Assembly: GCA_023435705.1 (NCBI GenBank)
Contig: JAEYRH010000009.1
Span: 264,572-328,571, forward strand
Length of the DNA stretch: 64,000 bases
Reading direction: 5' to 3'
DNA from: Bacillota bacterium
Lineage (GTDB): Bacteria; Bacillota; Clostridia; Christensenellales; UMGS416
In this document: positions 4,741 to 34,340 of the stretch, in pieces
Layout: every line of letters begins with the position of its first letter
Numbering within the stretch: position 1 is the first letter of the stretch
Made by a program: the position numbers and the translations under genes
Notes under the pieces: generated by a model
Database searches by the model: none
What the model was told of the DNA's origin: nothing
What the model saw: only the letters and a program-made list of their open reading frames with translations

Positions 4741-5900
4741 GACATAACACCAGCCGGGTATGATTGCACGGGCACAGCGGAGCCGGTCTTTTTTTTGTCT
4801 TCATAGAGCAGACGGTCCAGCAATTTGAGCAGCTCCTTCGCGTCCAGATTCAGTCCCTTGTGATATACGGTGCAGCCCACGCTGACAGACAACCGGTACG
4901 GCTTGCCGCTTGTTTGGTTGAACTCCTCCAGCCCGAGCTGAATGCGGCGGACTGTCTCCAGCAGGTTGTCTTCCCTTGAGATGTCCAACACCACCAGGAA
5001 TTCATCACCTCCATACCGGGCGATGAAATCATGCTCCCGCAGAGATGCCTGGAGAACCCTCACGGTGTCCAGAAGGGCATTATCTCCAGCCACATGGCCG
5101 TGGGTGTCGTTGATGGCTTTGAAGCCGTCCAGATCGATCAATATCGCGGAGAACGGAAAGCCCCTTGCGGCTTTTTCCCTCAGGTATTGGTCCAGCAGGC
5201 GCCGGTTGAACACGCCGGTCAGATAATCGGTATCCAACCGTTTGTCCTGCAGATTGAAATGCAGCATCAGCGATGAAAGTGTCAACCCGCATTGTGCCAT
5301 TGACAGCCCAACGGTCATGCTTTGCAGGATGCCGCCAATGAACGGCGGCACAATGAAGAGCACCATTGTGAAAAAATGCCTTCTCTCCAGCCTATGACGA
5401 TTTCTCATGATGAGCCAGAACGAATATAGCATAAGAAGAATGCTGACGGAGAACTGGACAAAAAACAAAGGCCCTCTGCTGTATGTGTTTTCCGGGCTCA
5501 CTGTGAAATACCAGCCGGTGAAAACGCTGCTTAGCGCGAGGGCACCGTTTGCAAACAGGCATGCCAGTAATGCCAACCGGTAGCCCCCAAGACGCGCCTC
5601 ATTGTGGAAGATCTGGTAATCTGCATAGAGGATCCACAGACAGGGGATGGTGGGCACTCCCAGATAAAGCAGCATGTTGCTAATCCAGTTGGCGTAATAG
5701 GCTGCGTCACCTGGCACTCTATCCACTATCCTGGAAAGACCGTCGAACACCAGCATGGCGGCTAGCGCGCCGATCAACATGAGAAATAACCGGTGCTGCG
5801 TAAACGCACGCTCCATGCGCTTGGTGGTGTTTGCCCAGATAAACACCACAATCAGAACCGATATGATATCGATATCGATCTCGTTGATGATTGCACTCAT
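4737..5900 (-). CDS. Membrane-anchored diguanylate cyclase (GGDEF domain), paralog of 3574-4740
   Basis: 387 aa with the same architecture. ARYGGDEFLVVL with REHD I-site. Its stop overlaps the downstream paralog's ATG (ATGA at 4737-4740). Confidence 0.9.
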   Translation of the reverse strand: MSAIINEIDIDIISVLIVVFIWANTTKRMERAFTQHRLFLMLIGALAAMLVFDGLSRIVDRVPGDAAYYANWISNMLLYLGVPTIPCLWILYADYQIFHNEARLGGYRLALLACLFANGALALSSVFTGWYFTVSPENTYSRGPLFFVQFSVSILLMLYSFWLIMRNRHRLERRHFFTMVLFIVPPFIGGILQSMTVGLSMAQCGLTLSSLMLHFNLQDKRLDTDYLTGVFNRRLLDQYLREKAARGFPFSAILIDLDGFKAINDTHGHVAGDNALLDTVRVLQASLREHDFIARYGGDEFLVVLDISREDNLLETVRRIQLGLEEFNQTSGKPYRLSVSVGCTVYHKGLNLDAKELLKLLDRLLYEDKKKTGSAVPVQSYPAGVMS

Positions 5901-5989
5901 GCCAGTCTCCTGTGAGCTGTTTATGAATTATATCAGAACCGTCATGAGATTGCATCTGGAAAATGGATTGGTATGCAAATGCGAATAGT

Positions 5990-8084: not shown

Positions 8085-10247
8085 CTAATACTCCATTTCC
8101 AGCGCATTCCCGGTCACTTCAAACTTGCCGCTGACCGTTGCGCGGCCCATCATCTGCGCGGACAGTGCATCAGGCTGGCTGCCGCCGGCATACACAGTGA
8201 ACGAGCCGGGCTCCAGCACGGTGCGGCCGTCGTCAGTAATCACGCACAGGCGGCGGGCGGGCACCTCAAAGACCATCTCGACTTGCTCACCTGCCTGCAA
8301 TTCCACGCGGCGGAAGTCAGTGAGCTGCCAGTGGGGCACGCGGGTGCTGGCTTCGTCATCCTTCAGATAAAGCTGGACAACCTCGCCGCCGGCGCGCTTG
8401 CCGGTGTTTTTCACCTTTACGGACACTTTGACGGAATCGCCTGCCTTCACCGGCTCCTTGGGCAGCTTCAGGCAGCTGTATTCAAAGGTCGTATAGGACA
8501 GGCCATAGCCAAAGGAGTAGTTGGGCTCCACATTGAGGAACCGGTAGGTGCGGCCATCCATCGAGTAGTCGTGGATATCCGGCAGGCTGGCGTCGCTTTG
8601 ATAAAATGTGACGGGCAGGCGACCGGAGGGGTTGCAGATGCCCACCAGCGCCTCGGCGACGGCCACACCGCCAAACTGGCCGGGGTACCAGGCATGCAGG
8701 ATGGCGGCGGCCCGGTCCTTGAAGGGCGTCATATCCACGGGGCTGCCAGCCATCATGACGAGGATCACCGGTTTGCCGGTCATGAGCACCGCCTCAAACA
8801 GATCGATCTGCGCCTTTGGCAGCGCGATGTGGTGCTTGTCGGCATCGGTGCCGCCGGCGGAGCCTTCCTCGCCCTCATAGCGCTCATCCAGGCCCAGCAC
8901 CAGCACCACGGCGTCGGAACGCTCTGCCACGATCATCGCCTCGGCAATGCCCCAGTTGGGTTTCTCGCCCCAGGAGGCTTCCGGCGCCTCTCCACGGTGC
9001 ATGCAGCCCTGGGCATACCACACGCGGGCTTCCGGCATGATCATGCGCACGCCTTCCAGCACCGTGTACTGCTCGCCGGCGGTGCCGTGGTAATTGCCCC
9101 ACAGCGCGATGCGGTTGTCGGCGTTGGGGCCGATCACGGCGATCGTGTTGGTCTTGGAGGCATCCAGCGGCAGGATGCCGTTGTTCTTCAAAAGCACCAG
9201 GCTGCGGCGTGCCATCTCACGGGAAAGCTCCAGGTGCTTGTTGCAGCACACCACCTCGTAGGGAATGCTGGCGTAGGGAACCATGGGCTCGGGGTCAAAC
9301 ATGCCCAGCTTCAGGCGGGCCACCATGAGCCGCTTCACGCACACGTCGATGTCGGCTTCGCTGAGCAGGCCGCGCTTCACCGCGTCGATCAGCTTTTCAA
9401 ATGTGCAGCCGCAGTTGAGGTCGCAGCCTTCCTTGATGGCCATGGCTGCCGATTCGGCGCCGTCGGCGGTGATCTTGTGGTGCATGTGGAAATCGTCAAT
9501 GGCGCCGCAGTCGCTCACATAATAGCCGTCGAACCCCCACTCGCCGCGCAGCAGATCGCTCATCAGCGTGTGGCTGGCGCAGCAGGGCTCGCCGTTGGTG
9601 CGGTTGTAAGCACCCATCACCGAGTAGGCTCCGGCTTCCTTCACGCATTCCTTGAAGGCCGGCAGATAGGTCTCGCGCATATCTTTAATGGATGCTTTGG
9701 CGTCAAACTGGTGGCGGTCTGCCTCCGGGCCGCTATGCACAGCGTAGTGCTTCACCGTGGCCACGGTCTTCAGATACTTGGGGTCGTCACCCTGCAAGCC
9801 CTTGATGAAGGCCTTGCCCATGCGGGCGGTGAGCACCGGGTCCTCGCCATAGGTCTCATGGCCGCGGCCCCAACGTGGATCGCGGAAGATGTTGATGTTG
9901 GGCGACCACATCGTCAGGCCCTTATAGATTTCCCGGTCAAGGTGCCGGGCGGATTCGTGGTGCTTGGCGCGAGCCTCGTCAGAAATGGCGACGGCCACTT
10001 CATACATCAGGTCGTCGTCAAAACTGGCCGCCATACCGATGGCCTGGGGAAACATCGTTGCCACACCGCCACGGGCTACGCCGTGCAGGCACTCATTCCA
10101 CCAGTTGTATTCGGGGATGCCGAGCCTCGGGATGGCCGAGGACATATACAAGGTCTGGCTGATCTTTTCCTCCAGATTCATGCGGCTGACCAGATCAGCT
10201 GCCCGATCCTCAAAGGTTAACGTTGTGTCTTTGTACCTTTCCTGCAT
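8085..10247 (-). CDS. Glycoside hydrolase family 3 (beta-glucosidase / beta-xylosidase type)
   Basis: 720 aa. EYNWWNECLHGVAR, KHYAVHSGPE and GYYVSDCGA (position of the GH3 nucleophile Asp motif), with a C-terminal beta-sandwich region. No signal peptide. Confidence 0.9.
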   Translation of the reverse strand: MQERYKDTTLTFEDRAADLVSRMNLEEKISQTLYMSSAIPRLGIPEYNWWNECLHGVARGGVATMFPQAIGMAASFDDDLMYEVAVAISDEARAKHHESARHLDREIYKGLTMWSPNINIFRDPRWGRGHETYGEDPVLTARMGKAFIKGLQGDDPKYLKTVATVKHYAVHSGPEADRHQFDAKASIKDMRETYLPAFKECVKEAGAYSVMGAYNRTNGEPCCASHTLMSDLLRGEWGFDGYYVSDCGAIDDFHMHHKITADGAESAAMAIKEGCDLNCGCTFEKLIDAVKRGLLSEADIDVCVKRLMVARLKLGMFDPEPMVPYASIPYEVVCCNKHLELSREMARRSLVLLKNNGILPLDASKTNTIAVIGPNADNRIALWGNYHGTAGEQYTVLEGVRMIMPEARVWYAQGCMHRGEAPEASWGEKPNWGIAEAMIVAERSDAVVLVLGLDERYEGEEGSAGGTDADKHHIALPKAQIDLFEAVLMTGKPVILVMMAGSPVDMTPFKDRAAAILHAWYPGQFGGVAVAEALVGICNPSGRLPVTFYQSDASLPDIHDYSMDGRTYRFLNVEPNYSFGYGLSYTTFEYSCLKLPKEPVKAGDSVKVSVKVKNTGKRAGGEVVQLYLKDDEASTRVPHWQLTDFRRVELQAGEQVEMVFEVPARRLCVITDDGRTVLEPGSFTVYAGGSQPDALSAQMMGRATVSGKFEVTGNALEMEY

Positions 10248-10427: not shown

Positions 10428-11222
10428 TTGAGCAAAAGGAAGACTGTCTGGCAGATCCACAACGAAGCGATAAAAGCGCTGTTTGCCCATTTCGGCACGA
10501 TGTCACTGGTGTCGCTGGCGCTTTCCGGCGTGGCAGTGGCGCTTGGCCTGGCGGAGTTCATCGTGATGGTTGTGGTCAAGGCCTTCGCGGGAATCAACTT
10601 CCAATCGATTGTGCAGCTAGTGCAAGCCGGATCCTTTCAGGAGTTTTGGGCAATGGCGCAGCCTCTGCTGGAGGCGCTGGGCATCAATCTGTTGATTGGG
10701 GCTGTGCTGGGTGCGTTCACCGGCATCCTCCAGACTGCGTCAACCATCAGCGGCTACGATGCCTCTCTTCGTGTGCTTGCAGGTGAGCGTGCCGCTCTTG
10801 GGCCCATTGCCCGCAATTTCCGGCGGGGCTTCTGGCGCTTTGCCGGTGTGACTGCCTGGGTTGCCCTCTGGCAGTTTCTTTGGTCGTTGTTGTTTCTGGT
10901 GCCCGGCATTGTGAAGTCCTACAGCTACCGGCTGGCCCCTTTCCTGGCCCTGCGGCACCCTGAGCTGACCGTGTGGCAGGCGCTCCGAAAATCCATTGAG
11001 ATCACCGAGGGTCATAAAGCCAGCTTGTTTGCTCTGGACTTGATCCTGATGCTCTACCAGCTGGCGGCGCTGTTGGCCTCCCTGCTCGTGCCTGTGCTGG
11101 GATCGTTGGCGGTGCGGCTGCTGCTGGTCGCACCGATGACGCTGCTGGTGTTTTCTGTGGCATATCGGGATATTGGCCGGGAAGCTGTGGAGAAGGGGCT
11201 GCTGACTGCTGAACGTGGCTGA
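10428..11222 (+). CDS. DUF975 family integral membrane protein (paralog 1 of 3)
   Basis: TTG start after GGATGGAGAAGG. Core FWRFAGVTAWVALWQFLWSLLFLVPGIVKSYSYRLAPFLALRHPELTVWQALRKSIEITEGHKASLF. Confidence 0.8.
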   Translation: MSKRKTVWQIHNEAIKALFAHFGTMSLVSLALSGVAVALGLAEFIVMVVVKAFAGINFQSIVQLVQAGSFQEFWAMAQPLLEALGINLLIGAVLGAFTGILQTASTISGYDASLRVLAGERAALGPIARNFRRGFWRFAGVTAWVALWQFLWSLLFLVPGIVKSYSYRLAPFLALRHPELTVWQALRKSIEITEGHKASLFALDLILMLYQLAALLASLLVPVLGSLAVRLLLVAPMTLLVFSVAYRDIGREAVEKGLLTAERG

Positions 11223-11333
11223 ATTGGCCTTTAGGTGCGTTAAGAGATGAATTCTGTGAGTAATGTCGCTATAAACAATAACGTAACAGGTATATAATAA
11301 CGATACAATATAGTATGAAAGGGAGTGTGTACC

Positions 11334-12311
11334 ATGAAGGGTGGGCAAAAAACAGTCGGCCACATTTATCATGAGGCCGTGCAGCAACTAAAAACCAACT
11401 ACTTCCAGTATGTGGGAGTAGGTGGGGTTTTCACCGCCATGTCAATGGTGTTCTCCTCGATTTTGATGGCGGTTTTCTTTGCATTCTACTTCGTTTTTGC
11501 CATGCTGTTCTCAATGGCGCCGGCGTTGGCAATCCCGCTGTTTATGGATGACTACAGGGGCGAAGCAACCGCTGCGGTTGCGGGGTTCCTTGTTGTGGGA
11601 GCCATCGTGCTTTTCATTTTTCTGGCATTGTTCAGCTTGGCGGCGCTGCTTGTGGGCATTGCAACGGCCACAGTGGGTGTCAGCTCAAACAAGGCTGTGC
11701 TCCTCTTGGTGCGTGGTGACAAACTGACCTGGCAGGCTGTCTGGGGTGATTTCAAGAAAAACTGGAAGCGATACCTGGGCATTTCGGCCTGGTCGACGTT
11801 GTGGACTCTTTTGTGGTCTCTGCTGTTTTATGTGCCCGGCGTGATCAAATCTTTGAGTTACTCCATGGCGCCTTATCTGGTGATTGAGAACCCAGATATG
11901 ACGGTGCGGCAGGCATTGAAGAAATCCATGGAGATCACCGAAGGCCACAAAGGCAAGCTGTTTTTGATTCTGTTGATTCAGATCGGCTTTACTTGGGCGG
12001 CTTCCATCCTGGCGTCGTTTGGGATCATGTATGCCAGCCTGGCCGCGGCGATCCTCTGGATCCTCCCGTTCTATCTGGCGATGATGGCAATTGCCTATCT
12101 GGATCTCAAGCAGGCAGCCATCGAAAAAGGACTGCTGAAGGATTCCTGCCAGCTGGTTGAGCCCACCCCCGTCGTAGATTACCAGGCAGTCGATGGCACG
12201 GTGGATGCAAGCCACAAGGCCGCGCAGCCGGTGCAGGTGGGTGTGCCTGCCAGCCAAGCTGCCGCCGGAAGCGAATTCACCGGCATGGAGGAAGACAGCC
12301 CGCAGTTGTAA
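11334..12311 (+). CDS. DUF975 family integral membrane protein (paralog 2 of 3)
   Basis: ATG 11334 after AAAGGGAG. Core NWKRYLGISAWSTLWTLLWSLLFYVPGVIKSLSYSMAPYLVIENPDMTVRQALKKSMEITEGHKGKLF. Extra ~50-aa hydrophilic tail. Confidence 0.8.
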   Translation: MKGGQKTVGHIYHEAVQQLKTNYFQYVGVGGVFTAMSMVFSSILMAVFFAFYFVFAMLFSMAPALAIPLFMDDYRGEATAAVAGFLVVGAIVLFIFLALFSLAALLVGIATATVGVSSNKAVLLLVRGDKLTWQAVWGDFKKNWKRYLGISAWSTLWTLLWSLLFYVPGVIKSLSYSMAPYLVIENPDMTVRQALKKSMEITEGHKGKLFLILLIQIGFTWAASILASFGIMYASLAAAILWILPFYLAMMAIAYLDLKQAAIEKGLLKDSCQLVEPTPVVDYQAVDGTVDASHKAAQPVQVGVPASQAAAGSEFTGMEEDSPQL

Positions 12312-12379
12312 TCAACTCTACATGATGACTGGAGCTCGGGTGGGCAGCACGCTCACCCGAGCAGTCTGTGAGGGCATGA

Positions 12380-13222
12380 ATGGGCGGCAGGAAAACTGTA
12401 AGCGTTATTCTTCGCGAGACTGCTTGGCTATACAGGAAGTATTTCATAACCTTCTTTGTCACAACTCTGATTGCTTTCGGAGTGTCCTATCTTTTTCGTT
12501 ATCTGGATTCCAGTGTGACAAAGCTTCTCGGCTTGGATAACGACAACTTGAAGACACTGCTCGTCTATGAGAATATTGAGCGGGCTATTGTTGGGTGGGG
12601 CCTGGGGTCCGACATCGCGTTGCCGATCCTGTTTGTTGGCTTATTCATGGTAATGAGTGCAACCTTAACGTTGGATAAGCTCTTCTTAATACCGGGTGAG
12701 ACGTTCACTGTGGGCGCGTATGATGTGATGTTTCAGATATGTAAAGGTAAAAAAAGATGCCTGCGGGAAGCGGTGCTCAATTTCAGGCGCAATTGGAAGC
12801 GTTATCTTGGCATCTCCGCCTGGTCATCCCTTTTCATCCTGGTGTGGTCATTCCTGTTCGTGATTCCAGGCCTGGTCAAAACATATGCCTATCAGCTTGC
12901 GCCGTTACTCATCCTGGATTACCCGGATATGACTGTGCGGCAGGCACTAAAAAAGTCCATTGAGATCACCAAGGGATACAAGGGGCGGCTGTTTGGTTTG
13001 GCATTCCTGGTGAGTCTGCCGTTTGGAATCATTTCGTTGATTGCAGGTTTCCTGTTCATGGTATCCAGAGACTTATCCACCTATACCGCGATCATGGCAA
13101 TTGCAAGCCCGGTGATCAGTTTGGTCATGATCCAGCCTATCACATATATGATGGTTACAATTGCATACCTGGATCTCAAGCGGGTTGCCATTGACCGGGG
13201 CCTTCTGCCATCACAAGGCTAG
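12380..13222 (+). CDS. DUF975 family integral membrane protein (paralog 3 of 3)
   Basis: Core NWKRYLGISAWSSLFILVWSFLFVIPGLVKTYAYQLAPLLILDYPDMTVRQALKKSIEITKGYKGRLF. Visibly AT-richer than paralog 1. Confidence 0.8.
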   Translation: MGGRKTVSVILRETAWLYRKYFITFFVTTLIAFGVSYLFRYLDSSVTKLLGLDNDNLKTLLVYENIERAIVGWGLGSDIALPILFVGLFMVMSATLTLDKLFLIPGETFTVGAYDVMFQICKGKKRCLREAVLNFRRNWKRYLGISAWSSLFILVWSFLFVIPGLVKTYAYQLAPLLILDYPDMTVRQALKKSIEITKGYKGRLFGLAFLVSLPFGIISLIAGFLFMVSRDLSTYTAIMAIASPVISLVMIQPITYMMVTIAYLDLKRVAIDRGLLPSQG

Positions 13223-22628: not shown

Positions 22629-22835
22629 GTGTCGCTGGTGTCCATCTGCTCGGTTGTGGTATTTTTGAGCCTCGGGTTTGTGTATGGTCTGTGGCATTCG
22701 GGCTGGATTGTGTTCTTCGCGGCACCGGTGACTGCCGCGATTCTCAAAGTGGTACGAACCCCTCCCGGAGGGGTAGGGGAGAGGGTTCTTTACCGCGTAA
22801 ACGCCTGCAGCTTGTCAATCAGCCCCAGCTCATAA
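22629..22835 (+). CDS. Possible small two-helix membrane protein or gene remnant
   Basis: GTG start. VSICSVVVFLSLGFVYGLWHSGWIVFFAAPVTAAIL forms two hydrophobic helices. The 3' tail overlaps a convergent gene. An in-frame ATG-GCG-AAG-TAA sits just upstream at 22599-22610. Confidence 0.25.
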   Translation: MSLVSICSVVVFLSLGFVYGLWHSGWIVFFAAPVTAAILKVVRTPPGGVGERVLYRVNACSLSISPSS

Positions 22836-25809: not shown

Positions 25810-25888
25810 GAAACAAACTCCAACCCAAACGGGCTGGATTTTGAATAGAAATAGAAAGAACAGGCATCAAGCCAGGAGGTACATAGAA

Positions 25889-27733
<1,845 letters not shown>

Positions 27734-27771
27734 TACCTCTCACTCTCAACCACTGAAACCCTCACCCCCTG

Positions 27772-27810
27772 CCCCCTCCCCCATGGGATTGGGGGAGGGG
27801 GTAAGGTTTG
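27772..27810 (+). terminator. GC-rich hairpin after dnaK (possible attenuator or terminator)
   Basis: CCCCCTCCCCC (27772-27782) pairs with GGGGGAGGGGG (27791-27801), 8-nt loop, then TAAGGTTTG. Confidence 0.4.
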
Positions 27811-27825
27811 AAATGGGGAGTGTTT

Positions 27826-27972
27826 ACTCCCTCCGGCAGCTTCGCTGCCACCTCCCTCAAGAGGGAGGCAAGTTCGTCAGCGAACAAAATGTTAGGAGTG
27901 TACTTGTCCCCCTCTTGAGGGGGATGTCATCTTTATCGCAGCGTTGCGCTGCGATGTGAAGATGACAGGGGG
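27826..27972 (-). repeat. Modular hairpin repeat, copy A (inverted relative to copy B)
   Basis: The reverse complement shares four blocks with 30304-30457: CCCCCTGTC, a 27-nt identical block (27902-27928), a 22-nt identical block (27851-27872) and a 25-nt block with 1 mismatch (27826-27850). The variable inserts between blocks are themselves hairpins. Confidence 0.75.
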
Positions 27973-28003
27973 GGTCCATTCCAAATCAACAAGGACAACA
28001 CCA

Positions 28004-29038
28004 ATGACCAACTACGCCCTCCTGATCCAGCCCGGCTTCGGAAAGGCCGACCCGGAAGCAGCAAGGCAGCTTTGCCTTGCGGAGTTTGCCGCGCTTTCCC
28101 GTCTTTGCAGCCAACCGGCGGCAGAAACAGAATACGGCGCAATCGGCGGCGTGCCCGCCTTGGAGTTCCGCGTGGCAGGGCCTCTTTCGGAGGCGGATGG
28201 TGCACTCTTGCGGCGTTTGTCGTTTTTCTATGGGTTGTTTGAGGTTGCAGATTTAAATGGCCGGCGGGCGTTATTTCCCGTGGAGCTGCCGGACAGCCGT
28301 TATTTCCCCGACCACCTGGGCAGTATGCTGAAGTATGCCGGCAAAACCAACGAGCGCTTCACGCGCATGATGATCAACCTGGCCCTGTCCAGCTGCCAAA
28401 CCGGCAATAAAGGCGTGATACGCCTGCTGGATCCAATGTGCGGCAAGGGCACCACGCTGTTTGAAGCACTGACTGACGGCATGGATGTGTCCGGTGTGGA
28501 TATCATGCGCTCATACTGGCAGGAAACCCAGAACTATCTGGTGAAATTCCTGGAGAAGGGCCGCTATAAGCACAAAGCTTCCGGCGAGACGGTGCCGGAT
28601 AGCAATGGCCGCAAGCTGGGTGATGTGTTTCTGCTCACAATGGCCAACAACAAGGCCGATTACGATGCCGGCAACGGGCGCGCGCTGCGGCTGGTGCACG
28701 GCGACAGCCGGCAGGCGGCGCTGTTTTTCAAGCGGGCCAGCTTTGATCTGTTGGTGTGCGATCTGCCCTACAACGTGCAGCATGAGGGGCGCAGCTCCAG
28801 CGGCCACGAGGATCTGGCAAAGCTGCTGGATCGATGTCTGCATGGGTGGGTGGCGCTGATGAAGCCCGGCGGCAGCGCGGTACTGTCATTCAATGAGCAC
28901 ACGCTCAAGCGCACCGCCGTGGAAGAAGCACTGGAGCGCCATGGGTTCCAGGTGTTGCGGGAGGAGCCATTCAGTGGCTGCCCCCACCGGGTGGATCAGG
29001 GCATCAAGCGCGATTTTGTGGTGGCGGTTAAGCCATAA
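28004..29038 (+). CDS. SAM-dependent methyltransferase (UPF0020/TRM11-like, DLPY motif IV)
   Basis: 344 aa from ATG 28004. Motif I LLDPMCGKGTTLFEA, motif IV LLVCDLPYNV. The ORF-track start at 27944 lies inside repeat copy A. Confidence 0.8.
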   Translation: MTNYALLIQPGFGKADPEAARQLCLAEFAALSRLCSQPAAETEYGAIGGVPALEFRVAGPLSEADGALLRRLSFFYGLFEVADLNGRRALFPVELPDSRYFPDHLGSMLKYAGKTNERFTRMMINLALSSCQTGNKGVIRLLDPMCGKGTTLFEALTDGMDVSGVDIMRSYWQETQNYLVKFLEKGRYKHKASGETVPDSNGRKLGDVFLLTMANNKADYDAGNGRALRLVHGDSRQAALFFKRASFDLLVCDLPYNVQHEGRSSSGHEDLAKLLDRCLHGWVALMKPGGSAVLSFNEHTLKRTAVEEALERHGFQVLREEPFSGCPHRVDQGIKRDFVVAVKP

Positions 29039-29172
29039 TCATCATATATAGCAATGGAAATATCAGGAATGCCTCTGTCAAGCGGAAACAACGTTTGAAC
29101 CAGGAGGCTTTTTCCTGTAGAATACCATGGTATTGCAGATAAACATTCCCGGGAAGAGGATTGAATCAATTC

Positions 29173-30300
29173 ATGGCTGAGAAACGCGATTATTATGAAG
29201 TATTGGGTGTGGGCCGCGACGCCAGCATCGACGAAATCAAGCGGTCGTTCCGCAAGCTGGCCAAGCAGTACCACCCCGACATGAACGACGGCGACAAGGT
29301 TTCCGAGGCCAAGTTCAAGGAAGTGAATGAGGCCTATGAGGTGCTTTCCGACCCGGACAAGCGGGCCCGCTATGACCAGTTCGGCCATGCGGCCGATCAG
29401 CCGGGCTTTGGCGGCGGCGGCTTCAGCGGCGATTTCGGCGACATTGGCGATATCTTTGATATGTTCACCGGCGGGATTTTCGGTGGCGGCGGGCGCGGCA
29501 GGCCGAAGGGCCCCCAGCAGGGCAACCACCTGCGCTATGACCTCACGATCAGCTTTGAGGAAGCGGCCTTTGGCGTGGAAAAGGAAATCACCTTCACCCG
29601 GGAGGACAACTGCACGGCCTGCGGCGGCACCGGTGCCAAAGCCGGCACCAGCCGCAAGACCTGCCCCACCTGCCATGGCCGGGGCCAGGTGTCCAGCTCC
29701 ATCCGCACACCACTGGGCATGATGAGCACAAGCCGCCCCTGCACCGATTGCGGCGGCGAGGGCACCAAGGTGGAAAGCCCCTGCCCGGAGTGCTCCGGCC
29801 GGGGCCATGTGCGAAAACGCAGGACGCTTAATGTGAAGATCCCCGCCGGCATTGACAACGGCCAGCGCATCGCCGTGCGCGGCGAGGGCGAGCCGGGCAT
29901 CAAAGGCGGCCCCAGCGGCGATTTGTATGTGCACATTGCCGTGCGGCCCCACAAGCTTTTCCAGCGCGATGGTTACGACATTTCCTATGAGCTGCCGATT
30001 ACCTTCTCGCAGGCTGCGCTTGGAGACAAGATTGACGTGCCCTCATTGGAAGGACCGACTGCCTTCACCATCCCAGAGGGCACCCAACCGGGAACCACCT
30101 TCCGCCTGGAAGGCAAGGGCATTACGCGGCTACAAGGCGCCCGCGGCAAGGGCGACCTTTTCATCAAGGTGAAGCTTGAGGTGCCCCAGAAGCTGGACAA
30201 TAAGCAGAAAGACCTGCTCCGCGAGTTTGAGGCCAGCCTGGCCGGCAAACAATACAAGGAGAAAAAGGGGTTTATGGACAGGCTGAAGGAGATGTTCTGA
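29173..30300 (+). CDS. dnaJ: Molecular chaperone DnaJ
   Basis: [13 protein letters not shown]...HPD J-domain, G/F region, four CxxCxGxG zinc motifs. Confidence 0.97.
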
Positions 30301-30303
30301 TCT

Positions 30304-30457
30304 CCCCCTGTCGCATACTGCGACATCCCCCTCAAGAGGGGGACAAGTGAACCCAGTTCAGTGATCTGCTTGCCTCCCTCTTGAGGGAGGCTGGTCGCAA
30401 TCTGCGATTGCTGCTCGCCCTTGCGACCTGGGTGGCAGCGCAGCTGCCGGAGGGAGT
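30304..30457 (+). repeat. Modular hairpin repeat, copy B
   Basis: Starts 4 nt after the dnaJ stop. Contains hairpins GTCGCA-TAC-TGCGAC, TCCCCCTC-AA-GAGGGGGA, CCTCCCTC-TT-GAGGGAGG and GGCAGC-GCA-GCTGCC. Has a 42-nt insert (30391-30432) that is absent from copy A. Confidence 0.75.
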
Positions 30458-30552
30458 TTTTGGCCGGACTTCGTGCCGGCCCTCGCAATAGCCATGAGAA
30501 GAATGTATCTATAAGTAAATGACATTACTGTATTGATCAAAGGAGCATCACC

Positions 30553-31494
30553 TTGGACTGGAAGCAAATCACCGTCGCCACCACCACAGCTGGAGCCGAC
30601 ATGGTCTCGGAAATCCTCATTGAGGCGGGTGCCGCCGGCACCGCCATTGAGGACAGGGCAGAGGTGGAAGCCCAGCAGCGCCTGCCCGGTGACTGGGACT
30701 ATATTGATGAAAACATCCTGAAGAACATGGCCCTGGAAGTGCAGGTGATGGCCTGGTATCCGGTGGACAGCAGGCTTGCTGACACGCTGGTCTATATCCG
30801 CCAGCGCCTGAGCGATGTGCTGGCGATGGATCTGGGCTTTGACGCCGGCACTCTGGTGCTCACCGCCGGTGACGTGAAGGATGAGGACTGGGAAAACAAC
30901 TGGAAGCAGTATTACAAGCCCTTTGAAGTGGGCAAGCGCCTGCTGGTGAAACCGATCTGGGAGAATGCCAGCGGCAACGGCAGGATCATCATCGAAATGG
31001 AGCCCGGCATGGCCTTCGGCACAGGCACCCATGAAACCACCTTTATGTGCCTGGAAATGCTTGATGAGGTTGTGCAGCCCGGCATTGATGTGTGGGACAT
31101 CGGCTGCGGCACCGGCATCCTCTCAGTGGCGGCAGTGCTGCTGGGTGCAAAAGGAGCCGTGGCGGTGGACCGCGACCCGGTGGCCGTGTCCGCAGCGAAG
31201 ATCAACTGCGAGCTCAACCATGTGGAAGGCCTTGTGGATGCGCGGCTCGGTGACCTGATGAAGGGCCTGGCCGGTCATCCCGACCTCATTGTGGCCAACA
31301 TCATCGCTGAGGTCATCATCGCAATGGCTGCCGATGCCTATGCGGCAGTCAAGCCCGGCGGGCTGTTCCTCTGCTCCGGCATCATCCTGGCCCGTGAGGA
31401 AGCAGTGAAACTGGCGCTCCTTGCTGCCGGTTTTACGATCCTTGAGGTCAAGCACATGGGCGAGTGGGTAGCGGTTTTGGCGAAGAAGCCATGA
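30553..31494 (+). CDS. prmA: Ribosomal protein L11 methyltransferase PrmA
   Basis: TTG start after AAAGGAG. MDWKQITVATT..., FGTGTHETT, DIGCGTGILS. Position after dnaJ is conserved in Firmicutes. Confidence 0.93.
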   Translation: MDWKQITVATTTAGADMVSEILIEAGAAGTAIEDRAEVEAQQRLPGDWDYIDENILKNMALEVQVMAWYPVDSRLADTLVYIRQRLSDVLAMDLGFDAGTLVLTAGDVKDEDWENNWKQYYKPFEVGKRLLVKPIWENASGNGRIIIEMEPGMAFGTGTHETTFMCLEMLDEVVQPGIDVWDIGCGTGILSVAAVLLGAKGAVAVDRDPVAVSAAKINCELNHVEGLVDARLGDLMKGLAGHPDLIVANIIAEVIIAMAADAYAAVKPGGLFLCSGIILAREEAVKLALLAAGFTILEVKHMGEWVAVLAKKP

Positions 31495-33156: not shown

Positions 33157-33185
33157 TTGACAGGCCATGCGATATCGGTTATCCT
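33157..33185 (+). promoter_or_regulatory. Candidate promoter directly after the HIT stop codon
   Basis: TTGACA (33157-33162), 17-nt spacer, TATCCT (33180-33185). The predicted start falls at the left arm of the structured element. Confidence 0.4.
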
Positions 33186-33189
33186 GATA

Positions 33190-33387
33190 TTGCAACATAC
33201 CAAATCCCTGAGAGGTGATTCAGTCCGGACGGCGCAGGCGCGCCTGCTGGAGCAGAGGGGACATCGAAACTGCACACGATGCAAACTGGCCTGTCGGCCT
33301 GTTTTGTGGTGCGTTTGATGATCCGCTCTGTGAGGTTTGAGGAATAAGCCGCAGAGCGGGAGCTCTGCGGCTTTTGGTATGTTGCAA
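33190..33387 (+). ncRNA. Candidate structured RNA element (riboswitch-like leader, sRNA or MITE) bounded by a 15-bp inverted repeat
   Basis: TTGCAACATACCAAA (33190-33204) is the exact reverse complement of TTTGGTATGTTGCAA (33373-33387). The interior has several short hairpins. A 9-bp terminator hairpin (33348-33371) is followed by TTTT. An alternative 8-bp pairing joins CCGCTCTG (33323-33330) with CAGAGCGG (33352-33359). Confidence 0.4.
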
Positions 33388-33410
33388 AGAAATGAAAGGA
33401 TGAAAACCAG

Positions 33411-34244
33411 ATGTATTTTGATTTTTCCAAATGGAGAAGGCCGGAGCCTTATGAGCCCGGCGAAGCTCAGTTCTGGACCGACCCTTACGTTGCAACCCAG
33501 ATGCTTCAGGCCCACCTGGATCCCAATACCGATGCGGCCAGCTTCCGGCCCGAGCGGATTGACGAAGTTTGTGCGTTTCTGAAAAGCAGGCTTGGGCTTT
33601 CTCCAGGTAAATCCATCGTGGATCTGGGCTGCGGCCCTGGGCTGTATTGCCGAAGGCTTGCCGATGCAGGCTGTGATGTGACGGGCATCGATTTCTCCAA
33701 ATCATCGATCGCCTATGCAATCGGCCAGGCGCGGGGCATGGCCAATGCCCCGAAATACCGGGTGGGTAACTATCTGGAATGGTTCGAGCAAGATCAATAC
33801 GACGCGGCAACGCTGATCTATGAGGACTTCGGCGTGCTGTCTCCGGCGGCCCGCAAGCGGCTTCTGGCCAATGTTTACAGCGCGCTCAAGCAAGGGGGGC
33901 TGTTCGCGCTGGATGTCGCCTCCAGCGCTGTATTCCAAAAGCTGCAACAGAAGCCTGCCCGGCATTGGGAGCACAGCTCCGGCGGCTTCTGGCGGCTCCA
34001 TAATCACCTTGTGCTGTATGAGAGGTTTTTGTTTCCGGATATTTCGGCCGCTTGCGAGCAATACGCGGTGACTGACAGCCGCACCGTGATCTATCGGAAC
34101 CACCAGACCTACTACCGGCTGGAGACCATCGCCGATGAGCTTTCTGAAGCCGGATTTTTGGTGGAAGACTGTTATTCGTCTCTTGCGGGCGAGGCTTGGC
34201 GTCCGGACTCTGAGCAGGTGGGCGTTGTCTGCCGCAAGCCATGA
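33411..34244 (+). CDS. Class I SAM-dependent methyltransferase
   Basis: 277 aa. Motif I IVDLGCGPGLYCRRLA, post-I DVTGIDFS. Confidence 0.88.
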   Translation: MYFDFSKWRRPEPYEPGEAQFWTDPYVATQMLQAHLDPNTDAASFRPERIDEVCAFLKSRLGLSPGKSIVDLGCGPGLYCRRLADAGCDVTGIDFSKSSIAYAIGQARGMANAPKYRVGNYLEWFEQDQYDAATLIYEDFGVLSPAARKRLLANVYSALKQGGLFALDVASSAVFQKLQQKPARHWEHSSGGFWRLHNHLVLYERFLFPDISAACEQYAVTDSRTVIYRNHQTYYRLETIADELSEAGFLVEDCYSSLAGEAWRPDSEQVGVVCRKP

Positions 34245-34264
34245 TGGAGTCGCAACAGTGATTT

Positions 34265-34309
34265 GGCGGCGGCCGGTGGCAGCATCCTGCCATCGGCCGG
34301 AAACCGCCG
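34265..34309 (+). terminator. GC-rich hairpin after the methyltransferase gene (no U tract)
   Basis: CGGCCGGTGGCAG-CATC-CTGCCATCGGCCG forms a 13-bp stem (one G-U), extended by GGCGG/CCGCC. Confidence 0.35.
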
Positions 34310-34340
34310 GAAAGAAAGCGGAAATGCAGTAAAAATCTAG

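Follow-up and report, generated by a model that had tools for sequence, protein, structure and literature searches.

Two inverted repeat doublets in the dnaK operon

The 64-kb stretch of DNA analysed here, referred to as the window, carries a dnaK operon in which two copies of a hairpin-rich repeat bracket a methyltransferase gene and dnaJ. Orthologous loci from three relatives (L022, L059 and L060) were available for comparison. The features are as follows, the copies being built of C-type and T-type half-units that are defined below:

25841..27733, plus strand: dnaK, the gene upstream of copy 1 (Pfam HSP70, E 1.5e-249)
27759..27801, plus strand: short-loop three-block unit, CCCTCACCCCC-TG-CCCCCTCCCCC-ATGGGAT-TGGGGGAGGGGG, an inverted repeat directly after dnaK
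27826..27975, plus strand: copy 1, a full doublet of T-type half, spacer and inverted C-type half; orthologous copy in L022
27826..27873, plus strand: T-type half-unit of copy 1, with end block CTCCCTCC at 27827-27834, ending in CAAGT
27835-27849, plus strand: variable hairpin of this half-unit, GGCAGC-TTC-GCTGCC
27851-27868, plus strand: conserved hairpin of this half-unit, CCTCCCTC-AA-GAGGGAGG, followed by CAAGT
27902..27975, minus strand: C-type half-unit of copy 1, with end block, 43-nt variable hairpin, TCCCCCTC-AA-GAGGGGGA hairpin and CAAGT
28004..29038, plus strand: TRM11-family SAM methyltransferase gene between dnaK and dnaJ (Pfam UPF0020/N6_N4_Mtase; names of homologues)
29161..30300, plus strand: dnaJ (Pfam DnaJ, DnaJ_C, DnaJ_CXXCXGXG), its stop codon overlapping the start of copy 2
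30300..30457, plus strand: copy 2, a full doublet of C-type half, spacer and T-type half, in opposite orientation to copy 1
30300..30348, plus strand: C-type half-unit of copy 2, with end block CTCCCCCT at 30302-30309 (mirror match 8/8 by direct reading)
Within it, plus strand: hairpins TGTCGCA-TAC-TGCGACA, then TCCCCCTC-AA-GAGGGGGA at 30326-30343, then CAAGT
30369..30457, minus strand: T-type half-unit of copy 2, its two hairpins separated by a nested hairpin insert of 42 nt (30391-30432)
30462..30483, plus strand: GGCCGGACTTCGTGCCGGCC hairpin, kept at the same position in relatives

Two inverted copies of one modular element had been proposed here in a first-pass annotation, and their similarity is indeed far beyond chance. 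Positions 27902-27928 and 30322-30348 (27 nt) are 100% complementary, 27826-27852 and 30431-30457 (27 nt) match between the copies with 96% complementarity, and 27851-27885 matches 30356-30390 (35 nt) to 83%. The motif CCCTCAAGAGGG occurs four times in the 64 kb, always within the two copies (0.44 expected), and the 25-nt stretch described as the fourth conserved block occurs twice, against an expectation of 0.00. The insert lengths given for the two copies (9/35, 20/29 and 42/0 nt) agree with our reading of the sequence. The ends first given for the copies were slightly short: copy 1 extends to 27975, where it closes with GACAGGGGGGGT, which departs by one base from the usual ...GGGGGAGT, and the start of copy 2, at about 30300-30302, lies over the TGA stop codon of dnaJ (30298-30300). 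Palindromic character, ascribed to every block, holds for blocks 2-4 but not for block 1 (CCCCCTGTC), which is no palindrome by itself. The alternative pairing suggested for GAGGGAG and CTCCCTC is better read as a mirror repeat, in which the end block of a half-unit matches the reversed arm of a hairpin. In the window this mirror match is 8/8 in three of the four half-units, including the T-type half of copy 1 by direct sequence reading, and 7/8 in the C-type half of copy 1; a direct-repeat reading of the end block yields 7/8 for both unit types.

The long 43-nt variable hairpin of copy 1 (TGTCATCTT...AAGATGACA) is also kept in L022. The nested insert of copy 2 is missing from L022 and unique to the window among all loci compared. 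GGGCCGGGCTCCGTCCCGGCCC hairpins, related to the GGCCGGACTTCGTGCCGGCC hairpin behind copy 2, recur in sister genomes. Besides the two doublets the window holds one further unit, that at 27759-27801, which is a classical BoxC/TM-like motif and belongs to a second dispersed family with copies in L010, L023 and L024. L059 and L022 keep it in the same place, with a pair of compensatory substitutions (C>T/G>A), and in the window a GGGGAGT end-like motif follows it at 27815-27821. An Rfam scan at gathering cut-offs returned just a tRNA, and an E-value scan of 27650-30650 just chance matches to microRNA-like hairpins.

Half-units and their mirrored end blocks

The basic unit of the family is a half-unit of ~48 nt that consists of a pyrimidine end block, a variable paired hairpin and a conserved pyrimidine-loop-purine hairpin. 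Inverted doublets of ~150 nt consist of one C-type and one T-type half-unit joined head-to-head. The strict architecture was found in 90 half-units across the first 58 sources. The variable hairpin changes in sequence while its pairing stays: 209 unique half-units contain 73 different stem arms, and the stem is perfect over at least 5 bp in 78% of them, compared with 2.7% of shuffled sequences. Covariation links the end block to the hairpin arm (176 concordant and 6 discordant cases), and full-length mirror matches across all loci number 230, against 21 direct matches. Because the end block mirrors the pyrimidine arm of the hairpin, the G-rich strand reads pyrimidine-purine-purine, and the third block could lie antiparallel on the second block of the unit, as in the design of BoxC/PIT/TM intrastrand-triplex repeats. 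The first loop measures 2-5 nt, and the second "loop" of the main half-units spans 15-45 nt and is itself a hairpin; the unit at 27759-27801, with loops of 2 and 7-8 nt, falls under the short-loop definition of BoxC/PIT/TM motifs.

Units follow each other in alternating orientation and with nested inserts, giving doublets and mosaics, and half-units are also found singly, tail-to-tail and as tandem arrays. They create spurious ORFs as well, such as one of 317 aa without a Pfam match that runs across a tandem array in Sporobacter termitidis.

Dispersal and turnover in related genomes

The family had been suspected to be dispersed, mosaic, palindromic and mostly intergenic. Scans of related genomes bear this out and exclude a local duplication. 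An exact 21-mer scan of species-representative genomes found 57 loci in related Oscillospirales, where a rough estimate predicts ~2 by chance, and four MAGs account for 16, 11, 10 and 8 of these. A metagenome scan added at least 120 element loci and viral contigs a further 23; these counts cover related genomes, metagenomes and viral contigs, the source genome itself being seen through the 64-kb window alone. The hosts are Clostridia of gut, rumen, termite gut and fermenters or digesters, in which the family is common. Although ORF calls, made with a greedy caller that overcalls in G+C-rich DNA, cover 86% of bases, 73% of 290 units lie outside them. Elements lie in both orientations and without strand bias in dozens of unrelated intergenic regions, with a mild excess of convergent over divergent flanking gene pairs.

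The dnaK operon itself illustrates the turnover of units. L022 has an element at each of the two sites, and both of its elements contain a nested module of 47 nt that is missing from both window copies. L059, nearer to the window in sequence than L022, has other units at both sites, and L060 has none at either site in an otherwise conserved operon. The methyltransferase gene occupies the same place in L060 and is thus older than the copies that bracket it. Presence/absence differences and whole-unit indels are also seen at other loci. Since orthologous sites hold other units or different short sequences, precise junctions cannot be defined, and no target-site duplication is visible at the dozens of element junctions listed, a comparison made without clean empty sites. 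Units also break short-read assemblies: contig L058 ends inside copy 1, and many contigs that carry the DUF559 gene described below are shorter than 2 kb.

The position of the two copies invites a functional reading specific to this operon, either as purpose-built RNA structures (terminator, attenuator or processing barrier) that set the DnaK:DnaJ ratio, or as the arms of an invertible methyltransferase-dnaJ switch. Both copies start within ~90 nt of a stop codon, high stability is predicted for their RNA folds (-98.5 kcal/mol with z -4.7, and -140 kcal/mol with z -7.8), TTTTT lies directly 3' of the closing stem of copy 2, and the copies stand in inverse orientation at a distance of 2.3 kb. 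A T-run is missing behind copy 1, a terminator scan called neither element end, and in a relative that lacks the elements dnaK is followed by a separate hairpin with a T-run. For the related PIT elements of E. coli, no promoter or terminator activity was reported (PMC4666352). The suggested inversion of the 2.3-kb segment finds no counterpart in L022, L059 and L060, where the order hrcA-grpE-dnaK-MTase-dnaJ-prmA is identical. Because the same element is dispersed in relatives, in both orientations and in unrelated intergenic regions, and differs at these very sites between sister species, an operon device or switch is extremely improbable.

In one MAG, RGIG2385, the elements contain nested GTAG-hairpin inserts and extra 17-bp outer inverted repeats (AAATTTCAGTTTATCGG), and ~16 near-identical copies suggest recent spread. 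Such outer repeats and copies, together with the shape of the whole element, a long imperfect palindrome with the ends ACTCCC...GGGAGT, would suit a MITE, that is, an IS deletion derivative that has terminal inverted repeats and relies on a DDE transposase for its movement. We consider this very unlikely, given that neither target-site duplications, nor a longer element with the same ends, nor a recurrent transposase gene adjoining the units were found. Moreover, single, tail-to-tail and tandem half-units are what a unit-based repeat would give, rather than an element of fixed form bounded by terminal inverted repeats.

Search for a REP-type transposase

The two copies had been classified as REP/BIME-like. 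This description is apt for the mosaic of alternating units, which resembles BIMEs and REPINs (PMC3337134, PMC3733652), but breaks down on the features that define REPs, a conserved GTAG tetranucleotide at the palindrome's foot and a RAYT gene that the repeats flank. In a canonical REP/REPIN system, non-autonomous doublets are copied by a RAYT, a Y1 HUH transposase whose single-copy gene lies at another genomic site. The pairing of two unit types as an inverted doublet around a short spacer, the intergenic position, the missing target-site duplication and the GTAG-hairpin inserts of RGIG2385 are all in line with such a system. The unit ends read ACTCCCYC..., however, and lack a GTAG tag. Three Y1 probes (RayT, IS200 and IS608 TnpA) gave no match at E<0.1 in tblastn, which is less sensitive than a profile search, in 1.4 Mb comprising 206 element-bearing loci and the window. 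The earlier statement that the window holds no cognate transposase is thereby upheld for the Y1 class, and the search for a RAYT (TnpA-REP) gene beyond the window that it had called for was equally negative in these loci. Two weak Y1 matches, in L039 and L026, trace to unrelated ORFs and not to Y1 proteins. Nor do the 25 leading Pfam families of ORFs adjoining units include a transposase; the gene that units recurrently flank is of another kind, so that copying by a RAYT appears improbable.

A DUF559 nuclease gene as recurrent neighbour

The recurrent neighbour of the units is a gene for a DUF559 (Vsr-like) nuclease of ~120 aa, which is tightly flanked by units in L040, L103, L149, L157 and others; the window contains no DUF559 gene. 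When 150 de-duplicated ORFs adjoining units are ranked by Pfam family, DUF559 comes first, a count in which three of the six DUF559 ORFs were curated by hand and replace spurious opposite-strand ORFs. Starting from the protein, five of five distinct neighbourhoods (P0190, P0167, P0124, P0198 and P0122) are flanked by units; P0121 is the L040 locus again and was left out. By a mirror-based detector, the density of units in 79 DUF559 loci is 1.55/kb up to 300 nt from DUF559 and 0.084/kb in the remainder. The layout is regular: the units turn their end blocks towards the gene, 3-22 nt separate the start codon from a unit end, the stop codon lies within the next unit, and this arrangement holds down to ~50% protein identity. 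In one species, DUF559 stands at a single fixed locus in 10/10 contigs and has units on one side only, which counts against a link between nuclease and units. Clostridia, G+C-rich viral contigs and, with ycjD, E. coli all provide examples of flanked DUF559 genes. In E. coli, a BoxC element (TM_ECO no. 9) lies 168 nt from the gene (sequence reading and Table 1 of PMC4666352), and the E. coli K-12 annotation around ycjD lists no repeat features.

Assignment of the flanked gene is clear, with 89-107 bits to PF04480 (cut-off 20.6; E down to 5e-31) and D51, E62, D64 and H68 invariant in the alignments. An AF2 model (pLDDT 86, from an alignment of database proteins only) has a restriction-endonuclease-like fold. 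It is close to 3HRL (sequence E 5e-21; Foldseek against the PDB E 1e-5, TMt 0.82, i.e. the TM-score normalised by target length) and to the homing endonuclease I-Bth0305I (3r3p, Foldseek against the PDB E 5.5e-4, TMt 0.80), and its match to Vsr itself is weak (Foldseek E 0.46). DUF559/YcjD, Vsr and I-Bth0305I have been grouped together in PD-(D/E)XK clade 58 (PMC3424549). PADLOC gave no match for the DUF559 proteins. A literature search turned up no paper that ties this nuclease family to repeats, the only hint being an unexplained DUF559 enrichment in the set of genes that inverted repeats overlap (PMC9881135, Table 1).

The neighbourhood may also be explained by a selfish, homing-type DUF559 gene that lands in or between repeats which spread by other means, for example by slippage and recombination at triplexes or hairpins. 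The fold near I-Bth0305I, related DUF559 genes in different gene neighbourhoods of different genera and the finding that BoxC sites are rearrangement hotspots in E. coli (PMC4666352) speak for it. A single fixed locus within a species and a flanking layout held over such protein divergence speak against it. The regularity looks like long co-residence rather than repeated landing, and we regard a homing-type passenger as unlikely. Adjacency as such falls short of showing an action of the nuclease on the units; the partnership of DUF559 with the repeats is a lead, and the nuclease a candidate acting protein.

A dispersed repeat family and its possible nuclease

Taken together, the two sequences in the dnaK operon are very probably ordinary members of a dispersed, non-coding Oscillospirales repeat family. 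Units would persist where extra hairpins are tolerated, beside existing hairpins at gene ends, and a process at the DNA level that leaves no target-site duplication, for example gene conversion between copies induced by breaks or stalling, may copy or homogenise them. That the small DUF559 nuclease, whose gene is typically bracketed by two units with inward-facing end blocks, acts on the units is a serious possibility, if somewhat short of an even chance. In dnaK mRNA the elements are predicted to fold into very stable multi-branched stems and may be incidental barriers at 3' ends. For the window, the outcome is deflationary, since the bracket consists of two passenger repeats in neighbouring intergenic gaps and not of an operon-specific switch.

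More tentatively, BoxC/PIT-type repeats, comprising both the Clostridial family and E. coli BoxC, might be the cognate DNA of the stand-alone DUF559/YcjD nuclease in a REPtron-like system. A Vsr-like PD-(D/E)XK enzyme would then take the role of the Y1 transposase, recognise a folded or mismatched unit structure and nick the unit, and nicking could lead to repair-driven copying, homogenisation or loss of units. We know of no function for stand-alone DUF559 proteins and, to our knowledge, PD-(D/E)XK Vsr-like proteins have no transposition chemistry on their own. If this tentative reading is true, an orphan nuclease family gains its first function and the BoxC-type repeat class a mechanism. The repeated tight flanking makes both the spread or maintenance of BoxC repeats and the role of YcjD/DUF559 testable by simple genetics and biochemistry.

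Relation to known repeat systems

BoxC-type repeats have been known as a class since the 1990s, and Hoyne et al. reportedly described the BoxC/PIT intrastrand-triplex repeats of E. coli and other bacteria in 2000. Several likenesses connect the Clostridial family with them. Both are G/C-rich, multi-copy (here as counted in related genomes) and mostly intergenic (Holder et al. 2015, PMC4666352). BoxC/PIT/TM motifs are defined by three homopurine/homopyrimidine blocks, the third being mirror-symmetric to the purine (or pyrimidine) block of the duplex (PMC4666352), and here, too, the third block mirrors the partner of the second (8/8), the triplex being read from this symmetry only; in E. coli, triplex formation was observed in vitro and not in vivo (PMC4666352). 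Two types occur in inverted doublets, type A with type B in E. coli and C-type with T-type here, sites vary among close relatives, and no transposase is nearby. For the unit at 27759-27801 the likeness extends even to the TM_ECO consensus, CCCTCACCC.../...GGGTGAGGG (PMC4666352). The differences are a variable hairpin of 15-45 nt in the main half-units instead of a 3-nt second loop, the block sequences CTCCCYCY, and the common nested inserts and tandem arrays. Published limits for triplex loops are 0-10 nt (Hoyne et al.) and 1-6 nt (ITxF) (PMC4666352), so searches within such limits (6-10 nt at most) would miss the main half-units: the Clostridial family shares the mirror-block design of E. coli BoxC/PIT, and its hypervariable paired hairpin hides it from them. 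The work on BoxC neither discusses the Clostridial host lineage nor notes the flanked DUF559 gene (PMC4666352).

With REP, BIME and REPIN sequences the family shares short extragenic palindromes, two alternating unit types, doublets or mosaics and the lack of target duplication; it differs in having no GTAG tag at the unit ends and in a unit made of two hairpins and a mirror block. Many variable hairpins of the T-type start with ...CCGTC, as in CGTC-tagged REPs (Di Nocera et al. 2013, PMC3733652). This superfamily has no dedicated transposase and often forms inverted dimers, as here, and no Firmicutes families were described in it (PMC3733652); in the Clostridial units, however, the tag is inconstant (CGTC, CGCC, CGGC or TGTC) and the conserved parts lie outside that hairpin. 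The parallel with REPtrons is one of organization: a small, single-copy nuclease-type gene is bracketed by its own repeats, and the repeat sequence shifts along with the lineage of the flanked gene. The enzyme class is another one, PD-(D/E)XK Vsr-like, and no Y1 HUH transposase was found. Thus, judged by its sequence design, the family is best described as BoxC/PIT/TM with a hairpin in the second loop, a known kind to which it is closer than to REP/RAYT.

The two elements in the dnaK operon

The first-pass annotation had aligned the reverse complement of 27826-27972 with 30304-30457 as four conserved blocks, and this alignment was reproduced on re-reading the sequence. The matches between the copies include a perfect one of 27 nt, one of 27 nt with a single mismatch and one of 35 nt at 83%. 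The extents need correction, since copy 1 reaches further than described, to 27975, and copy 2 begins at about 30300, overlapping the dnaJ stop codon; also, block 1 is not itself palindromic, as had been claimed for every block. All four occurrences of the core dodecamer CCCTCAAGAGGG in the 64 kb fall within the two copies (0.44 expected), and the 25-nt block 4 occurs twice (none expected). According to Pfam the operon reads hrcA, grpE, dnaK, TRM11-type methyltransferase, dnaJ, prmA and MiaB-like radical-SAM enzyme, with the repeats placed as follows:

25841-27733, dnaK (Pfam)
27759-27801, related unit, directly after dnaK
27826-27975, copy 1
28004-29038, TRM11-type methyltransferase (Pfam)
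29161-30300, dnaJ (Pfam)
30300-30457, copy 2, inverted

Beyond these two copies and the related unit, no further units of this type were found in the 64-kb window, and no Rfam family matches the elements. In mRNA, the very stable folds predicted for the elements may incidentally slow 3' decay.

Other hairpins and repeats were seen along the way. A hairpin family, GGGCCGGGCTCCGTCCCGGCCC and its variants, recurs beside elements in sister genomes (5830-5875, 5950-5985 and 8480-8505 of locus L059), and a hairpin of this type is retained in the window after copy 2 (30462-30483). A small C-run/G-run hairpin at a gene end (22759-22792, GAACCCCTCCCGGAGGGGTAGGGGAGAGGGTTC) may represent this block design in degenerate form. 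At 10935-13207, three direct repeats of about 96 and 58 nt, with 62-74% identity and spaced by 930-1070 nt, have the appearance of three paralogous genes in tandem.

A dispersed family built from mirror-block units

The elements are assembled from half-units of about 48 nt, which read ACTCCCYC, YG, a variable hairpin, CA, YCYCCCTC-loop-GAGGGRGR and CAAGT. Half-units are either C-type (ACTCCCCC, with TCCCCC...GGGGGA) or T-type (ACTCCCTC, with CCTCCC...GGGAGG), and one of each, inverted around a spacer of about 20 nt, makes up the element of about 150 nt. In almost all copies the variable hairpin is paired, with differing sequences (73 distinct arms, loops of 3-4 nt); among 209 unique units, 78% have a stem of 5 bp or more without mismatch vs 2.7% of shuffles. 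The end block varies together with the type of hairpin (concordant in 176 cases, discordant in 6) and mirrors the pyrimidine arm of the hairpin (CTCCCTCC vs CCTCCCTC; CTCCCCCT vs TCCCCCTC), with 230 full-length mirror matches against 21 direct matches over all loci. On the G-rich strand the order is pyrimidine block, purine block, purine block, the third being antiparallel-identical to the second.

A species-level scan with CYCCCTCAAGAGGGRGRCAAG, using one genome per species, returned 57 loci, where by our own estimate about two are expected by chance. Four Oscillospirales MAGs account for most of them: RGIG2385 with 16 loci, OH_CBlB_68 with 11, OH_PDB_219 with 10 and Sporobacter termitidis bin60 with 8. 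The flanks of different element copies are unrelated to one another. The proposal of a repeat family is borne out, and the two window sequences belong to a dispersed family of palindromic repeats that is built from mirror-block units. A looser gapped pattern gave at least 120 metagenome matches (human gut, termite gut, rumen, fermenters) and 23 viral contigs. The placement between genes, which the first-pass annotation proposed to check, holds for most copies and not for all: of 290 units left after de-duplication, 73% fall outside ORFs, though ORFs take 86% of bases according to a crude ORF caller. Genes flanking the units are co-directional in 103 cases, convergent in 35 and divergent in 21. 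The units would be passengers that are tolerated beside gene-end hairpins.

In RGIG2385 (JAFRDB01, among L002-L057) a longer, near-identical element version carries extra 17-bp outer inverted repeats (AAATTTCAGTTTATCGG), and several copies hold nested inserts with GTAG-tagged hairpins, which suggests that the element expanded recently and that a second type of repeat is present. The 23 viral contigs, from IMG/VR (L184-L206), contain half-units of the family; L184-L202 form a group of related phage genomes bearing them, with three copies in one stretch of L197.

Turnover at the two sites

Three orthologous loci were compared with the window.

State of the two sites in related genomes
L022 (OH_CBlB_68): about 85% nucleotide identity to the window; both elements, same site-specific variable hairpins
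L059 (OH_PDB_219): 88-93% identity, closer than L022; conserved to the element edges, different units at both sites
L060: methyltransferase identity 71%; element-free gaps after dnaK (93 nt) and dnaJ (54 nt)

The window elements thus differ between sister species at these two sites. In both T-halves of L022, the hairpin loop holds a nested module of 47 nt that is absent from both window copies; copy 2 of the window has a private 42-nt insert instead. In L060 a hairpin and then a T-run follow dnaK, and since the methyltransferase still lies between dnaK and dnaJ there, its insertion predates the repeats. Judging from the states of both sites in the three loci, the repeats are dispensable for the dnaK operon, and their unit content has turned over since the species split. 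Inversion of the segment between the copies, which had been considered, finds no support because the gene order is identical in all three loci. In other near-identical contig pairs, unit clusters are present in one member and absent from the other; no clean junction or target duplication was seen in the pairs compared. A process acting at the DNA level would homogenise or replace repeat copies.

The methyltransferase at 28004-29038 is of the TRM11-family/N6_N4-type SAM class and keeps its position within the heat-shock operon in L022, L059 and the repeat-free L060. A protein 53% identical to it (P0007) has an unrelated gene context, and PADLOC gives a weak match to mad2 (E 2.8e-13). About 1.1 kb of the window (33157-34332) with a class I SAM methyltransferase ORF (33411-34244) is missing from the closer relative L059, and L060 has a similar class I SAM methyltransferase gene at the corresponding place.

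DUF559 genes are habitually bracketed by units

No match at E<0.1 to the Y1 transposase probes (RayT, IS200 and IS608 TnpA) was obtained in the window and 206 element-bearing loci (1.4 Mb). For Y1-type enzymes, the statement that the window holds no cognate transposase stands. When ORFs from element-bearing loci were clustered all against all, a single small family recurred at unrelated places; its protein, of about 120 aa, matches Pfam DUF559 (E 1e-25 to 5e-31). The layout of the gene is regular. Its start codon lies 3-22 nt after the end (…GGAGGGAGT) of the preceding unit and its stop codon inside or just before the next one; in L040, the stop TGA is the loop of CCTCCCTCCTGAGGGAGG. When 150 de-duplicated ORFs lying no more than 150 nt from a unit are ranked by Pfam family, DUF559 comes first (6 members, three substituted by hand), and the top 25 families include no transposases.

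We show here that DUF559 genes are habitually bracketed by mirror-block units. OH_PDB_219 is the sequenced genome closest to the window's organism, and for its DUF559 gene 365 homologues reach E<=1e-10; many of them sit on contigs <2 kb. Those examined were P0190, P0167, P0124 and P0198, picked for long contigs, and the two closest, P0121 and P0122; P0121 is the L040 locus again, leaving five distinct gene neighbourhoods. In all five, the gene has units on both sides that share the design but differ in block sequence by lineage. L215 and L040 have exactly the window's C/T family, and there the unit adjoining the DUF559 gene contains the same 47-nt module as the dnaK-operon copies of L022. In one species every contig (10 of 10) has the gene at the same, fixed locus, with whole-unit indels upstream. 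In 79 DUF559 loci, of which viral contigs supplied 71, the density of mirror-block units is 1.55 per kb up to 300 nt from DUF559 and 0.084 per kb in the rest of these loci, an 18-fold difference; the usual layout is an inverted pair with the end blocks toward the gene. We tentatively infer that DUF559 might be the protein acting on the units, a reading to which we give somewhat less than an even chance.

In human-gut contigs L157, L149, L107 and L124 a type I restriction-modification hsdS gene stands immediately upstream of the unit-flanked DUF559 gene. In Sporobacter termitidis DSM 10068 (FQXV01000006; L207 2950-3910) full elements in a tandem array, repeating about every 170 nt, directly follow the DUF559 gene; the 317-aa ORF called across this array in the public record has no Pfam match and is probably spurious.

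The DUF559 protein has a Vsr-like PD-(D/E)XK fold. It matches 3HRL by sequence (E 5e-21), and in structure its AF2 model (pLDDT 86) resembles both 3hrl and the homing endonuclease I-Bth0305I. D51, E62, D64 and H68 are invariant in DUF559 alignments. As a speculation, pairing of a C-type with a T-type half would generate G·T and A·C mismatches, which is noteworthy for a Vsr relative. Our literature searches found no paper tying DUF559/YcjD to repeats; one survey records, without comment, an enrichment of DUF559 among the genes that inverted repeats overlap (PMC9881135).

Likeness to the E. coli BoxC/PIT/TM_ECO motifs

E. coli K-12 has a DUF559 gene, ycjD (1,351,407-1,351,760), and TM_ECO no. 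9 (1,351,239-1,351,204) lies 168 nt beyond it; by our own rough estimate, with 18 BoxC sites in 4.6 Mb, the chance of such closeness is about 0.003. Between ycjD and this BoxC copy is a partial duplicate of the ycjD 3' end (L213 5330-5410, GGAGACGGTGCTGGAGAATATTC...). The ycjD stop codon falls within CCCTCTCCCTGAAAGAGCGAGGGGG, and a perfect 17-bp inverted repeat overlaps the start of the gene.

The pyrimidine-purine-purine mirror-block layout is that which defines the BoxC/PIT/TM_ECO intrastrand-triplex motifs (PMC4666352). E. coli K-12 has 23 BoxC/TM_ECO copies, always intergenic and without strand bias, among them five inverted doublets that each always combine type A with type B (PMC4666352). 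These motifs form a triplex in vitro, not demonstrably in vivo, and have no promoter or terminator activity; their sites vary more from strain to strain than control sites, with no mobility genes nearby (PMC4666352). The Clostridial units have all sequence-level traits of the E. coli motifs. They differ in carrying a 15-45-nt hairpin at the position of the 3-nt BoxC loop. The unit just after dnaK, CCCTCACCCCC-TG-CCCCCTCCCCC-ATGGGAT-TGGGGGAGGGGG, is a classical short-loop version, and this unit is also dispersed, with copies in L010, L023 and L024.
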